57,675 bases of DNA from a virus (lineage: Duplodnaviria; Caudoviricetes). The position numbers and the translations under genes were made by a program. Below, piece after piece: positions 1,118 to 19,886 of this stretch. Numbering within the stretch: position 1 is the stretch's first letter; each line of letters starts with the position of its first letter. The notes under the pieces were generated by a model. It had not been told where the DNA came from, searched no databases, and saw nothing but the letters and a program-made list of their open reading frames with translations. Location of the stretch: IMG/VR virus record IMGVR_UViG_3300006174_000002, positions 1 through 57,675 of that record. One strand, given 5' to 3'.

Positions 1118-3898
1118 ATGTCATTACAACCTGAAGTCATCCCCGACATAACGCTGCCGGACGTCGTGCCGCGTCAGTTCGTGCCGAAGCCCGAGGCGTT
1201 TATGCGCGGCATGAAAAAGCTCCCAGCAACCCTCAAGATGCTGGGCTACGCATCCCTGCGCCCCGGCCAGGACACGGCAGTGTTTAACCTGTTCCATTGC
1301 CGTGACACGTTTGCCGTGATCCCCACGGCCCACGGTAAGACGGCCATCAGCGTGGTGCCGGCCGTGTGCATGGATTGGAAGTGTCTCATCTTCAGCCCGC
1401 TGGTCGCGCTGATGCAGGATCAGGTCACTAGCCTCCAGCGTCTCGGACTCTCGGCCGGCGCGGTCAGCAGCGGCCAGACACAGGCTGAGAACATGATGAC
1501 GCTCAAGGCTTGGGAAATGGGAGAACTCCAGTTTTTGCTGGTAGCCCCGGAACGGTTGGAGAACTCAGAGTTTCTCCGAGTCATCAAGTTGGTACGGCCA
1601 AATCTGGTTACCGTAGACGAAGCACACTGCCACGAAGGCTATGTGCGTGTAGCTACTTCTGAAGGTAAGATGCGCATTAAGGATCTGCATGATCTGCGTG
1701 TAGCTGGTAAGCCGTTGCCAAAAGTGCTCAGCATGAGCGCAGAGGGTCACTGCGAATTCAAAAATATCACGAATAGTTGGCAGATGCCGTTTAAGGCACT
1801 GACCAGCATTTACACGGACAGTGGTATGTTGCGGTCTACATCGGATCATCTGTGGTGGACACAGACTGGTTGGAAACGGGCGGATAGCATTATACCAGGT
1901 GTCGACACATTGGTTGGTGTGAATCACGGGACTCGAAGCGTGACGACGCCGAACGCGGACCAACTCCAGTTGCTAATTGGTTCGTTCTTTGGTGACGGCG
2001 GGTTCGGTCGCGCGTCGAAACATAAAACGCATTACCGTTGCAAATACACACACGGAATACAGCAAGCGGACTACTGCAGATGGAAAACCCACTTGCTTGG
2101 TGGTTATTGTGAACGTATTGAACAAAACGGTTATGCCCAGACCCCGGCGCTGATAGGCAGAAGTAAGATGTTCAAGCTGCCTTGGGCACTTAACAAATCG
2201 GACCTGGATGCTGCGTTATTGTCTACGTTTGATTCGAAGGCTTTAGCTGTTTGGATTATGGACGACGGTTCCTTGGCTGGATCGGTAAACAACCCACACA
2301 CGTTGGTCTTGCATACCGAAGATTTCCCAGAGCATTCAGTACTACGACTGTCAGATATGCTCAAATCCAAATACGGCGTGTCCGGCCGAGTGCGCCGTGA
2401 GAAGGAGAAGTATTGGACACTGTGTTTCAAACAGGCTGATGCCTTAGTGCTACTCCGGGCCGCGTCGCCTTATTTTCATGTCAGCATGTTCAAAAAACTG
2501 AAGTGGACATTAGGCGGACAGCACGTTTGGTCGGGATTGCTACAGACGGATGTACATAAAGTGTTGAAGGTGCAAGCCTCGGTTAGACCGCATCGACATA
2601 AAAACCCACATCTGTACGACATTGAGGTGGAGGACAATCATAACCTCTTTGTTCACTCGTCGCATGGTGGTAACACTTCTATGCCGCATGGCACGGCTTT
2701 CCTGACACACAACTGCCTTTCGAACTGGTCAGATTCCTTCCGCCCGTCGTACGTCAAGATCGGCAACCTCATCTCGGCCGTCAACCCAGATGCCGTGTTG
2801 GCCATGACCGCGACGTGTACAAAGGAAATCGACAAGGATGTCCGCTCCGTGCTTGGTATCGTCGGTGCCGCCAAGGTGCTGTACCTGCCGTCACGCAAGG
2901 AGTTGGTACTGAAAAGCGAGAACTACAAGTCAGATCGGCAGGTGCTGAAATACGTCGAGGAATCGACCGGTGCCACGATCGTGTACTGCGCGACTCGGAA
3001 GCGTTGTGAGGAGCTGTTCAACAACCTCGGCAACGCCATCACCGGCGGCAGTCTCGTGTACCACGGTGGTATGCCGTCCGACGCGCGCACGTCGAATCAG
3101 AACCTGTTCATGTCAGGTGACGTGCGGGTCATGTTTGCCACCAATGCGTTCGGCATGGGTATCGACAAACGTGACATCCGAATGATCCTGCACAGGGACG
3201 TGCCGGCATCCATTGAGGCCTATTCCCAGGAGACCGGCCGCGCAGCCCGCGACGGTTTACCGTCTCAGTGTGTGGCACTTGTGGATCCGCAGTCGTTCAG
3301 CACGAATCAGTATCTGCTGGAGTGCTCGCACCCCGAACGTCGTGACGTGGAGCGGGTCTATCATACGTTGGTGAAGCACGCTGACAAGGATCGGAAGATC
3401 ATGAAGACCGGAGCGGATCTGGCGTCCATGATTGGGGTCAAGGAGCAGCAGGTCAGTGCCTCGCTGGGCGTGCTGAAGTCGTCTGGCGTAATTGACCGTG
3501 AGGATGACGAAACCAAACCGGTGACAATCCGATTCGTTAAACCGCCGGATGATGCGAAGTTCGTGAAGCTGCTGGACGACGTCAAGAAGTACGGCATGCT
3601 GCTCCCGGACGGCTCGGTGGACTTGAGCATTGACCTGTTGCTGAAGCAGACTGGGCGCAAGTATGCCACGGTACACAGTCACCTGAAGAAGTTGGATAAG
3701 GACGGGTTTATTGTTTACACCTTGCCGTTCCGTGGTAAAACTACGGTAATGAAGGGTGATTTAAGTCTGGTCGACTTTGAACGTCTGGCCCAACGTAAGC
3801 GCGATGCTTACGCGAAGCTGGACGCCATGCAAGACCTGCTGAATACCCCGGATGAACAGAAGCATGAATTCCTCACTAATTACTTCAGCCACGCCTGA
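1118..3898 (+). CDS. recQ: RecQ-family DEAH helicase containing an intein
   Basis: LRPGQ, PTAHGKT (motif I), SPLVALMQDQ, VDEAH|CLSNWSDSFRPSY after intein removal, TAT, ATNAFGMGIDK, YSQETGRAARDG. Confidence 0.92.
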   Translation: MSLQPEVIPDITLPDVVPRQFVPKPEAFMRGMKKLPATLKMLGYASLRPGQDTAVFNLFHCRDTFAVIPTAHGKTAISVVPAVCMDWKCLIFSPLVALMQDQVTSLQRLGLSAGAVSSGQTQAENMMTLKAWEMGELQFLLVAPERLENSEFLRVIKLVRPNLVTVDEAHCHEGYVRVATSEGKMRIKDLHDLRVAGKPLPKVLSMSAEGHCEFKNITNSWQMPFKALTSIYTDSGMLRSTSDHLWWTQTGWKRADSIIPGVDTLVGVNHGTRSVTTPNADQLQLLIGSFFGDGGFGRASKHKTHYRCKYTHGIQQADYCRWKTHLLGGYCERIEQNGYAQTPALIGRSKMFKLPWALNKSDLDAALLSTFDSKALAVWIMDDGSLAGSVNNPHTLVLHTEDFPEHSVLRLSDMLKSKYGVSGRVRREKEKYWTLCFKQADALVLLRAASPYFHVSMFKKLKWTLGGQHVWSGLLQTDVHKVLKVQASVRPHRHKNPHLYDIEVEDNHNLFVHSSHGGNTSMPHGTAFLTHNCLSNWSDSFRPSYVKIGNLISAVNPDAVLAMTATCTKEIDKDVRSVLGIVGAAKVLYLPSRKELVLKSENYKSDRQVLKYVEESTGATIVYCATRKRCEELFNNLGNAITGGSLVYHGGMPSDARTSNQNLFMSGDVRVMFATNAFGMGIDKRDIRMILHRDVPASIEAYSQETGRAARDGLPSQCVALVDPQSFSTNQYLLECSHPERRDVERVYHTLVKHADKDRKIMKTGADLASMIGVKEQQVSASLGVLKSSGVIDREDDETKPVTIRFVKPPDDAKFVKLLDDVKKYGMLLPDGSVDLSIDLLLKQTGRKYATVHSHLKKLDKDGFIVYTLPFRGKTTVMKGDLSLVDFERLAQRKRDAYAKLDAMQDLLNTPDEQKHEFLTNYFSHA
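1628..2713 (+). mobile_element. intein with LAGLIDADG homing endonuclease in RecQ motif II
   Basis: Starts CHEGYVRV, ends YDIEVEDNHN...THN followed by Cys. LLIGSFFGDG and LAVWIMDDGS motifs. Lower GC than the exteins. Confidence 0.92.
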
Positions 3899-17809: not shown

Positions 17810-17991
17810 AATACAAAGGTTTTACCATCAAGAAGATTGATTACCAGGACTGCGACAATTATCAGGTAATCACACCCAGAGGTGACGTTTGGGCTGACTT
17901 GGCGTCGAACACTGCCATTGCGAAAAAGTGGATTGACTGTCATATACATGAACAACTCAGAAATGCACCCATTACAAAAGCTGTTAACTGA
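17806..17991 (+). CDS. hypothetical protein
   Basis: ATGA-coupled. Confidence 0.55.
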   Translation: MKYKGFTIKKIDYQDCDNYQVITPRGDVWADLASNTAIAKKWIDCHIHEQLRNAPITKAVN

Positions 17992-18232
17992 AGCTGGCTG
18001 CGGAGGCTGCTACGATAATCATGAGCAGACGGAGCCGTCCACATATTGCGATGGTTTCATCAAGGCGGAAACGTTGAAGAACGCCAAGTTGGAATACGAT
18101 GCGCTTGACGCGGTGGCAAAGGCTGCTGCTGCGTTATACGATCCGCGACTTGCTCTGGGTGAGTACTATACGCACAAAACACTGCTTCAGGCTCGGCTGG
18201 CAGAGCTTGCTGCAATTCGAAGTAACGCATGA
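17963..18232 (+). CDS. hypothetical protein
   Basis: ORF whose TGA overlaps the tnpB ATG, start uncertain. Confidence 0.55.
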   Translation: MHPLQKLLTEAGCGGCYDNHEQTEPSTYCDGFIKAETLKNAKLEYDALDAVAKAAAALYDPRLALGEYYTHKTLLQARLAELAAIRSNA

Positions 18233-19350
18233 ACAATTCCAGCGCCGCAATCCCTCACGTTAACGGTGTGTTAGGTGCACCTGTAGAAACTGTGGCTTGC
18301 TGTTTTAAAACTTTGATTTCCGATGAGTTTGCTCATGGTCTTTCAAAGATGGAAATACAATGCCGATCCGCTGTTGAACGTATGCTGCTTGCCCGCAACG
18401 AAACCTCATCTAAATTCTACAAGGAAGTTCCCTGCGTCGTGGCCAAGAGCTTGGTCGCAAAATATCAACGTAACCCGAAATGCAAGTCAGTCAAACGTAT
18501 TGTGATTCCAGTTTGTGGTGACAAAGGGAAGCAGATCAAGCTGGTACCGGGTGGCGTGCGTATTCCAGCATTATTCAAGAAAGCAGTAATTCCAGTGTTC
18601 TGGCCTCGTCCGATAGCGGGTCATGTGCGCAGCGTTGAGATCTTTCAGCGTAGAGGTAGGTGGTTTGCTAACTTCTGTGTCAATGTCGCTACCGCCCCGG
18701 CCGTGAAAGCTACTGGCGTTATCGGCGTCGACCGAAACAGTGTCGGTAACGTAGCAGTCATGGCTGACCCGATGACGGGGCACGTTAGGCACATGGGTTT
18801 CAATCCGGCACGTACAAAGGCATGCTGGCGGAACCGAAAGAAGAATTTGCAGAAACAGGGTAAGCGTCGTCTCCTGTCGAAGCTGAATAAAAACCATGCA
18901 CGACGCTCAACATACCAAAATCACGTTGTCAGCAAGACAGTCGTGGAATACGCCAAAACACATTCTCGTGCTATTGCGTTGGAAAAGTTGTCCGGGGTTA
19001 ATGCCAAAGGCTCAAAGATTCGTTCCTACTCGGAACGTAATCAGTGGGCGTTTGCACAACTCGCCGGCTTCATCCAATACAAGGCACGGCTTGCAGGTGT
19101 AACCGTAGTGGAAGTCGATCCGGCTTATACAAGCCAGACCTGCTCTCGCTGCGGCCATATCCATAAACCGAACGGAAAGTTGTTCAGTTGCCCGGCTTGC
19201 AGACACGAAGACCATCGAGATTCAAACGCGGCGTTCAACATTGGACGTCGAGGACTTGATTGCATCGGTGGATTAGCGACTCACACAGCGCGGAGTCGTT
19301 CGGGTCTAATTGATAGCCCCGCATCTGGGACATTGGAGACTAAAATATGA
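18229..19350 (+). CDS. tnpB: TnpB RNA-guided nuclease (IS200/IS605 family)
   Basis: RuvC-I IGVDRN, RuvC-II ALEKL, YTSQTCSRCG...CPAC zinc ribbon, RuvC-III HRDSNAAFNI. Catalytic D/E/D are intact. Confidence 0.92.
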   Translation: MNNSSAAIPHVNGVLGAPVETVACCFKTLISDEFAHGLSKMEIQCRSAVERMLLARNETSSKFYKEVPCVVAKSLVAKYQRNPKCKSVKRIVIPVCGDKGKQIKLVPGGVRIPALFKKAVIPVFWPRPIAGHVRSVEIFQRRGRWFANFCVNVATAPAVKATGVIGVDRNSVGNVAVMADPMTGHVRHMGFNPARTKACWRNRKKNLQKQGKRRLLSKLNKNHARRSTYQNHVVSKTVVEYAKTHSRAIALEKLSGVNAKGSKIRSYSERNQWAFAQLAGFIQYKARLAGVTVVEVDPAYTSQTCSRCGHIHKPNGKLFSCPACRHEDHRDSNAAFNIGRRGLDCIGGLATHTARSRSGLIDSPASGTLETKI

Positions 19351-19396
19351 CAAACCCAATCAAACAGAATCCCGCCGTTCACGGTGGGAGTATCAA
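18234..19396 (+). mobile_element. non-autonomous IS200/IS605 (IS1341-like) element, tnpB only
   Basis: Right end is GAAT + hairpin CCCGCCG-TTCA-CGGTGGG + TCAA. The left end has CAAT + a related degenerate hairpin 15 nt inside a TGAA target. No tnpA in the window. Confidence 0.8.
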
Positions 19397-19412
19397 ACCC
19401 AGACTTGAATCC
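19250..19412 (+). ncRNA. predicted TnpB omega/reRNA (guide starts about 19397, ACCCAGACTTGAATCC)
   Basis: By family rule it overlaps the tnpB 3' end and the right end. The 5' boundary is a guess. Confidence 0.55.
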
Positions 19413-19886
19413 TACGCCTCCGGTTCTGGGGCACTCTCGTTCAGCTACACGGAAGGTGAGGGTAACGACCGTAAGTCGGTGGGACATCCCACCACGATCG
19501 CGGAAGTGGCGCTCAGCCGTTGCTGGCTGACCATGCAGGAGAACATCAAGAACTTCGACTACGTGCTCCAGGACTTCGGCTCGGAGCAGTATCCGCAAAT
19601 TCTGGCGTTCGGCCCAGTTAGGCGTCTCGGTCCGGATCGCCTACGCACATACGCTTATGGCAAGGTCAGCGATGTTCGGTACGAGAAAATTGATGACTGT
19701 GACCGCTGGCGGTATTTCTTCCGACCCGAGCATGCCCCTGAAACGGAACATGAATTGGTCAACTGGTCCATGAGAGGGGTTTTGAACTTCTTCCTCGATC
19801 ACGAACAGAAATGCACCGAGGCGCTCGAGTTGCGCGACCTCCGGGAACGCACGGCTGGCAAACCACACCTAGTACCATTACCATGA
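19347..19886 (+). CDS. hypothetical protein with IS-derived N-terminus
   Basis: First 16 codons lie inside the IS right end. Confidence 0.7.
   Translation: MTNPIKQNPAVHGGSIKPRLESYASGSGALSFSYTEGEGNDRKSVGHPTTIAEVALSRCWLTMQENIKNFDYVLQDFGSEQYPQILAFGPVRRLGPDRLRTYAYGKVSDVRYEKIDDCDRWRYFFRPEHAPETEHELVNWSMRGVLNFFLDHEQKCTEALELRDLRERTAGKPHLVPLP

Follow-up and report, generated by a model that had tools for sequence, protein, structure and literature searches.

The subject of this study is a TnpB element in a viral contig of 57,675 bases (IMG/VR record IMGVR_UViG_3300006174_000002), estimated to be 30% complete and referred to here, at its full length, as the window. The window carries one copy of the element, at 18234..19396, which is 1,163 nucleotides (nt) long and lacks tnpA. 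Judged from the sequences of this copy and its relatives, it is likely that the element replaces the start codon lost from the downstream gene, that its outward-pointing Shine-Dalgarno (SD) motif and ATG are a trait of the clade, and that insertions surviving in phages are concentrated on start codons. We also lean, with somewhat less confidence, towards a broader reading, that a phage-borne clade of IS605-family TnpB elements has evolved a translational equivalent of the intron. In this broader proposal (A)TGAA is the commonest start context, the terminal ATCAA of the element mimics it, a built-in ribosome-binding site and ATG restart the gene, and insertions into starts, especially at ATGA overlaps, would be nearly cost-free; in copies that have lost tnpA, the target or transposon-adjacent motif (TAM), the start of the host gene and the start of tnpB would be the same five bases.

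The element and the interrupted gene

The features of the locus are as follows, with all gene starts taken from open frames:

17882..18232, + strand: upstream phage gene, first ATG at 17951; its stop TGA (18230-18232) lies inside ATGAA and is intact after insertion
18229..18233, + strand: ATGAA, with the probable native start ATG (18229-18231) of the downstream gene, overlapped by the target TGAA (18230-18233)
18229..19350, + strand: tnpB frame, 373 amino acids (aa) if begun at the captured ATG, with in-frame GTG at residues 14 and 22
18234..19396, + strand: whole element (full-length relatives are ~1.5 kb)
18234..18275, + strand: left end, with 14 nt, the guide-like CAAT (18248-18251), the imperfect hairpin CCCTCACG-TTAA-CGGTGTG and TTAGG
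19197..19396, + strand: predicted omega-RNA scaffold, overlapping the 3' part of tnpB and the right end
19335..19349, + strand: SD and ATG, with GGAG (19335-19338), an 8-nt spacer and ATG 19347-19349, which overlaps the tnpB stop as ATGA
19347..19886, + strand: downstream gene as it would be restarted, 179 aa, with a 16-residue element-encoded leader, MTNPIKQNPAVHGGSI, followed by the presumed native protein from its second codon
19367..19396, + strand: right end, with guide GAAT (19367-19370), hairpin (19371-19388) and AGTATCAA, which holds the cleavage site TCAA (19393-19396)
19397..19412, + strand: presumed omega-RNA guide, placed by the TnpB model; it would be the target next to TGAA in the uninterrupted allele

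Read directly, ATG 18229-18231 and the stop of the upstream gene form an ATGA overlap, and removal of 18234..19396 leaves a frame that begins M-K-P-R-L-E-S-Y-A-S-G. The downstream protein, for which no family name was found, has five homologues at 53–62% identity. The conserved core in all five starts x-L-x-SYASGSGALSF, which in the window stands five codons after 19396, and the shortest homologue begins MKLISYASG. The claim of the first-pass annotation that excision would give this gene a clean start therefore fits the homologues.

With the element in place, ATG 19347 is the first start codon of the open reading frame (ORF) 19347..19886 and lies 50 nt before the right end. As had been claimed, it overlaps the tnpB stop and its frame runs through the right-end hairpin, without a stop, into the downstream gene, forming an ORF of 179 aa. 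No in-frame ATG, GTG or TTG occurs from the right end to residue 44 of the downstream frame, so that only ATG 19347 could yield a protein keeping the invariant SYASGSGALSF. Between 16500 and 21500 no promoter-like or terminator-like site was found on the + strand, a weak fit to co-transcription.

In the mechanism proposed, insertion 3' of TGAA within ATGAA would take the start codon from the downstream gene, and the element's GGAG and ATG 19347 would restart that gene through the right-end hairpin. With ATC AA at the right end against ATG AA at the target, the frame would enter the native second codon, and the product would be the native protein with the 16-residue leader in place of its Met.

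The left end begins at 18234 with CAATTCCAG, and its guide-like CAAT is followed by CCCTCACGTTAACGGTG. TGAA does stand upstream of CAAT where the first-pass annotation had placed it, although the gap between the two is 14 nt and not 15; apart from this spacing, its coordinates and frames were borne out to the base. At the other end, the hairpin CCCGCCG-TTCA-CGGTGGG folds better than 197 of 200 shuffles (z -2.5), and compensatory changes in it are seen in L003, a related element from a complete phage. The left hairpin of the window, taken alone, folds no better than shuffles (z +0.83); the left end as a whole is homologous to, and laid out like, those of 17 other elements. Two small repeats may be chance: CAATTC occurs at 18213-18218, 21 nt before the left end, and again as the first six bases of the element (18234-18239), and L003 has GCAATTCAAG at its left boundary.

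A different reading of this boundary would assign ATG 18229 to the element itself, with the left end at or before 18229, and would have the element split one longer gene. We consider this highly improbable. Removal of 18229..19396 does also leave one open frame (...N-A-P-R-L-E-S-Y...), and the proteins of eleven TnpB clusters begin with M-N-G, and those of one with V-N-G, immediately ahead of the left hairpin; nevertheless, the base before TGAA varies among related elements (G in L129, T in L138, C in L134 and L142; protein P0051 starts with V), and the sequence upstream of it is unrelated. Cleavage at 18228 would be 23 nt from the hairpin foot, compared with 16–20 nt in the family and 19 nt in IS608. 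Two homologues of the downstream protein carry N-terminal extensions of ~60 residues, which would suit a longer ancestral gene, but the upstream ORF is unlike the extensions of P0002 or P0003 (E 9.7 and 12). The suggestion of a single former gene, split into the upstream ORF and the downstream gene, was rejected on this lack of similarity and on the N-TGAA boundary found across the family. The upstream ORF matched no Pfam or PHROG family.

The start codon device in related elements

When viral contigs were scanned with a TnpB alignment of 74 sequences, 31 loci were found, 30 of them new, at 42–57% identity. In all, 33 loci were analysed (the window, L003 and L008 from earlier scans, and L125-L154). 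Scans with a two-sequence alignment had given only the remote relatives L005 and L006. L003 comes from a complete phage of 71.6 kb, in which the Y1 transposase family PF01797 was not found, and L008 from a metagenome contig cut inside tnpB. Counts of right ends (n = 30) omit L151, where the contig ends first, L146, whose right end is not recognisable, and L140, which is identical to L139.

The outward start codon is widespread among these elements. An ATG that is 11–65 nt inside the right end, in the phase ATC AA|N (the terminal AA at codon positions 1 and 2) and stop-free to the end is present in 26 of 30, compared with 1 and 3 of 30 for the other two phases. When right ends are grouped at 80% identity or more over the last 90 nt, the in-phase ATG is found in 13 of the 16 clusters, at distances that vary from 11 to 65 nt. 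For ATGs at 41–65 nt, an SD-like motif (GGAGG, GGAG, GAGG, AGGAG or AAGGA) stands 6–10 nt upstream in all but L133 (14 nt). Eleven elements have the ATG at 11 nt, where the last tnpB codon and the stop make it up between them (CGA TGA). Target and right end both finish in AA; insertion therefore turns a start of the form ATG AA|N into ATC AA|N, in the frame opened by the ATG of the element. Copies at sites other than starts (L137, L149, L150) have the in-phase ATG as well, which indicates that it is part of the element and was not gained after insertion.

The ends themselves are uniform. All 30 elements with a defined right end finish in ATCAA, with the layout (A/G)GAATC-hairpin-GAG(C/T)ATCAA, and similarity between the window and its sisters breaks off precisely at the end of TATCAA or CATCAA. 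Left ends could be recognised in 18 distinct elements, all of which show N-TGAA, 12–16 nt, CAAT, a hairpin and GGGTTAG-like bases, the base before TGAA being A in 14 of them. Hairpin sequences vary between related elements with their stems kept, and the sequence outside the ends, upstream of N-TGAA included, is unrelated between loci. These alignments uphold the boundaries drawn earlier for the window copy, TGAA on the left and TCAA on the right.

Guides and cleavage sites in elements of this kind pair base by base; in IS608 the guide GAAT specifies TCAA, and by the same pairing CAAT would specify TGAA. Of the features that mark IS200/IS605, the family shows insertion 3' of a fixed tetra- or pentanucleotide without inverted terminal repeats (N-TGAA in 18/18, ATCAA in 30/30) and subterminal hairpins with guides (CAAT with TGAA in 18/18, GAAT with TCAA in about 26/30). 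The third, the Y1 transposase TnpA (PF01797), was not found in the window and is present in relatives: in four of the five searched (L126, L129, L131, L139) it is intact inside the element, on the opposite strand, between the left end and tnpB, and in the fifth, L147, it was not found. The tnpA-bearing relatives measure ~1.5 kb, and the copies in the window and L147 (1,225 nt) are without tnpA. By its ends, its target and its TnpB, the element at 18234..19396 is a non-autonomous, tnpA-deleted IS200/IS605 derivative. Two further copies, L148:2518-3229 (712 nt) and L150:2299-3028 (730 nt), are internally deleted and retain both ends and the SD-ATG, with only part of tnpB.

A second copy of the right end (window 19362-19397) was seen in a freshwater sequencing run, X2, on contig 4 (151 nt, depth 2). 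It has two mismatches, stops matching at 19397 and has different flanks, with an in-phase ATG four codons upstream. Parts of the window's downstream gene are also present in X2, at 99–100% identity, with the junctions not covered. A search with the right-end pattern returned at least 115 stretches that were discarded as chance matches, tblastn having found no tnpB relative in any of them, and L009 was likewise a chance match.

Insertion sites and flanking genes

In 19 of 30 elements the flank beyond the right end is open for at least 45 codons in the element's phase. An upstream ORF on the same strand (at least 40 codons) overlaps the NTG with its TGA in the window, L129, L132, L145 and L147, and abuts it with a TAA in L139 and L142. 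L147 mirrors the window, with an ATGA overlap on the left and an ATG at 3501 that reads through the right end into a C39 peptidase of 221 aa. Six of ten flank ORFs tested matched profiles (SNF2 helicase, glycosyltransferase, M24 peptidase, C39 peptidase, methyltransferase and RusA), and in three of them the junction falls close to the start of the profile: residue 3 corresponds to position 4 in the glycosyltransferase, 6 to 5 in the C39 peptidase and 16 to 13 in the M24 peptidase, whose homologues have N-termini within ~7 residues of the junction. A gene-caller protein, P0127, found on 27 contigs, consists of MSI and the 189-residue flank ORF of L139.

The control for insertion sites was every TGAA on either strand of the flanks of these loci, 969 sites in total, and the tests exclude the window:

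Flank open for at least 45 codons: observed 18/29, control 28%, p 1.4e-4
A before TGAA: observed 13/17, control 28%, p 5e-5
A and open flank: observed 9/17, control 9.8%, p 1e-5
A, open flank and no in-frame start upstream: observed 6/17, control 3.3%, p 1e-5

The enrichment for start codons is at least 10-fold over control TGAA sites. Together with the in-phase ATG, present in 26 of the 30 elements and in 13 of the 16 clusters, these start-enriched flanks extend the earlier claim of a silent insertion that needs no splicing from one copy to a family trait, and they favour such a strategy over sister elements sitting at random TGAA sites without preservation of the frame.

Several points weigh against this reading. 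The binomial tests above treat insertions as independent, their control models the occurrence of TGAA and not insertion by TnpA, and the enrichment can come from post-insertion selection on phages, from insertion bias, or from both. Of the 18 insertions whose two ends are both defined, six lie away from usable starts, L137 and L149 among them inside genes. Where the ATG lies 11 nt from the end it could be incidental, as only L141 and L152 of those eleven elements have a clear SD. The closest sisters of the window copy, L003, L008 and L125, have one extra base between hairpin and ATCAA and no in-phase ATG, the frame being out of phase or stopped, and L003 and L125 have no TGAA at the left flank.

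A further point on that side is that no empty allele was found for any insertion in searches of cultured-phage DNA, viral contigs, public reads and flank proteins; the check for phage contigs with an empty site that had been proposed with the first-pass annotation was part of this and found none. The 3.8-kb region had no match among cultured phages in near or distant DNA searches, and scans of viral contigs for relatives of both flanking proteins gave nothing useful, L002 being a 17-residue match. No joint skipping the element was listed among public reads, where most of the element has no contig, even in the run that is probably its source, which makes that search uninformative. Searches for the L139 flank protein and the L141 helicase in an uninterrupted state returned nothing beyond the fused P0127 and relatives at 30% identity or below. 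The excision junction consequently rests on the frames, the N-termini of homologues and the family alignment.

Could the arrangement be a selected accident, with insertion at any TGAA and the right-end ATG kept for tnpB C-terminal coding or omega-RNA structure? The three closest sisters without the phase, the origin of the eleven nearest ATGs in the stop context CGA TGA, and the six insertions away from usable starts would all agree with this. Against it stand the placing of the ATG in the one useful phase in 13 of 16 right-end clusters, from several positions and usually with an SD 6–10 nt upstream, the in-phase ATG in non-start copies and the at least 10-fold enrichment over control sites, and we regard it as unlikely. 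An interim reading of the same kind, in which a 1-nt deletion peculiar to the window had made the frame, was reversed: the spacing in the window is typical of the family, and it is L003, L008 and L125 that have the extra base. L003 and L125 may be immobilised copies or may have changed target. The left guide of L003 is CCAT, compared with CAAT in the rest of the family, and the left ends of L003 (2880-2960, after TCAAG) and L125 (~2430, after AAACG) are still recognisable. In four of the six insertions away from usable starts A precedes TGAA, which hints, in a small number, that the A belongs to the target preference itself.

Less likely again is that the SD-ATG opens a small ORF serving the transposon, through unfolding of the hairpin, maturation of the omega-RNA or tuning of tnpB, with fusions to the flank as side effects. 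The frame does cross the hairpin and the 3' part of the predicted omega-RNA, and it ends a few codons into the flank in L135, L137, L149 and L150. This would not explain the phase, which reconstitutes ATG AA|N, or the 19 of 30 flanks that are open for at least 45 codons in it. Such a role and the restart of the flanking gene are compatible, not mutually exclusive.

Three insertions have contexts of their own. L148 lies on the start of an M24 (methionine-aminopeptidase-like) gene. L137 (~2124 and 3647) interrupts a gene in frame whose downstream part looks, by eye, like an HNH endonuclease (..C-E-Y-C-G..H-A-H-H-I..), and would be a selfish element inside another. In L143:3583-5517 the glycosyltransferase of 645 residues that the element would restart has a weak match to a Hint domain at residues 310-354 (8e-5, below the Pfam cut-off), which may be an intein.

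tnpB and the predicted omega-RNA

The product of tnpB in the window matches PF07282 (Cas12f1-like TNB, 8.8e-25) and has the marks of TnpB, a RuvC D-E-D triad and a CxxC...CxxC zinc finger: D168 (GVDRN), E252 (ALEKL) and D331 (HRDSN), together with C305/C308/C321/C324, all fall in invariant columns of the 74-sequence family alignment. The best solved relative is TnpB 9nzp (3.4e-17), with an alignment that spans E252 and D331, and the gene is apparently intact. Its product is 88% identical to that of L008, 77% to L003 and 57% to L125, and tblastn against phages and plasmids gave only matches below 60%. In the protein collection, 677 members of the TnpB clade were found at E <= 1e-30.

In full-length relatives tnpB has its own start (M-T/P-x-K-L...N-D-V), which is deleted in the window copy. 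Here tnpB is probably translated from the captured ATG, through coupling to the upstream gene. The earlier observation that tnpB is in frame with that ATG holds for the window and for the deleted L148; in the 16 other distinct elements, which are mostly full-length, only 4–29 codons are open from the captured start. Eleven TnpB protein clusters begin M-N-G-x-S-x-x-A-I-P-x-V-N-G-G, and one begins with V, which suggests that more short derivatives like the window copy exist. Many TnpBs of the clade (P0010, P0012, P0024, P0027, P0085, P0109, P0115 and others; L129, L130, L151) are recorded with 70–130 extra N-terminal residues, at 440–503 aa. The extra part corresponds to the strand opposite tnpA, open in the tnpB frame, and is probably an annotation artefact and not a domain.

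The consensus fold of the predicted omega-RNA region, from three copies only, has 60 pairs, seven of them with changes on both sides; Rfam gave no match at gathering score in the whole window. TGAA 18230-18233 is presumed to be the TAM of the element's TnpB. With the omega-RNA, whose guide would be the ~16 bases after 19396, TnpB would recognise TGAA plus ACCCAGACTTGAATCC in phages without the element; uninterrupted alleles of co-infecting phages would be cut, and repair would copy the element in, amounting to homing. Transposition to a new site would need TnpA in trans from a full-length relative. A contig of 215 nt from a freshwater-sediment metatranscriptome (run X3) matches tnpB 18996-19208 without mismatch, reflecting either transcription or DNA carry-over.

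With regard to the surroundings, the gene at 16981-17538 matches PHROG 2643, a 5'-3' deoxyribonucleotidase (8.8e-13), which places the element in a co-directional block that includes nucleotide-metabolism genes. No tRNA was found in the window.

Comparison with known systems

A literature search, with supplements and subscription journals outside its scope, found no description of start-codon insertion or an outward start codon in IS200/IS605; the accessible parts of a 2026 OMEGA review (PMC13565253), of a TnpB/Cas12 classification (PMC10691335, 2023) and of a 2026 preprint on IS605 Arc do not mention start codons. We could not find an earlier description of an outward SD-ATG in the phase of the target combined with concentration on starts. 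A transposon in a gene-dense genome has to keep its carrier alive, and the known solutions are targeting of intergenic regions or terminators, self-splicing (introns, IStrons) and protein splicing (inteins). If the proposal is true, a transposon end whose ribosome-binding site and ATG match its own target in phase would be a further, purely translational answer, and would help to explain the persistence of TnpB elements in phages. There is also an annotation trap: genes beside elements are called with short foreign leaders (MSI..., M..NP.V..GSI...), and TnpB proteins receive long, probably false extensions at the N-terminus. As a basis for TnpB tools, the family offers a compact protein of ~360 residues with a predicted TGAA TAM.

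An omega-RNA for the TnpB of ISDra2, and transposon homing, were reportedly described by Karvelis in 2021 and Meers in 2023. The window element resembles ISDra2 in the RuvC and zinc-finger motifs of TnpB and, by prediction, in a structured RNA that would take in both the right end and the 3' end of tnpB, its guide lying beyond the element; by analogy, the TAM would be expected to equal the target of the transposase. The two proteins are distant (30 bits, E 2e-6), and, unlike ISDra2, the element sits in a phage genome, where homing would act between co-infecting phages.

IS608 (ISHp608), an IS200/IS605 element of Helicobacter pylori, has a layout that agrees with that of the family. According to the accessible part of He et al. 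(2011, PMC3201880), its left cleavage site is 19 nt from the hairpin foot and its right site 10 nt after it, with 4-nt guides 5' of the feet that pair with the cleavage sites, and altering the left guide shifts the target predictably. As far as that account goes, the family is like IS608 in inserting strand-specifically 3' of a fixed tetranucleotide, in its subterminal hairpins, each preceded on the 5' side of the foot by a 4-nt guide, in a right end of the form GAAT-hairpin-...TCAA and in left cleavage ~18-19 nt from the hairpin foot. It differs in its target, TGAA (guide CAAT) in place of TTAC (guide AAAG), and in full-length relatives that carry tnpA on the strand opposite tnpB, with no tnpA in the window copy. 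The family also has the outward in-phase SD-ATG, of which the accessible part of PMC3201880 describes none for IS608, a silence of that source and not a test.

IStrons, group I introns fused to IS605 or IS607 in the account given by the accessible part of PMC13565253, are comparable as TnpB transposons that silence their own insertion into coding regions and have multifunctional junctions. The window element has no group I intron at its 5' side (no Rfam match, and a left end only ~40 nt before the tnpB sequence). Unlike the IStron, which is spliced, it would be silenced at translation through replacement of the start, and so only at gene starts, and its downstream protein would gain a short leader in place of exact restoration.

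The accessible part of the same review describes seg and mob as free-standing homing endonuclease genes of T-even phages (PMC13565253). Like them, the window element is a selfish nuclease gene that has settled between conserved phage genes and would leave them functional, and it would be expected to spread by cutting the element-free allele during co-infection; unlike them, its nuclease is predicted to be RNA-guided, it has transposon ends, and it sits on a start codon and not in an intergenic gap.

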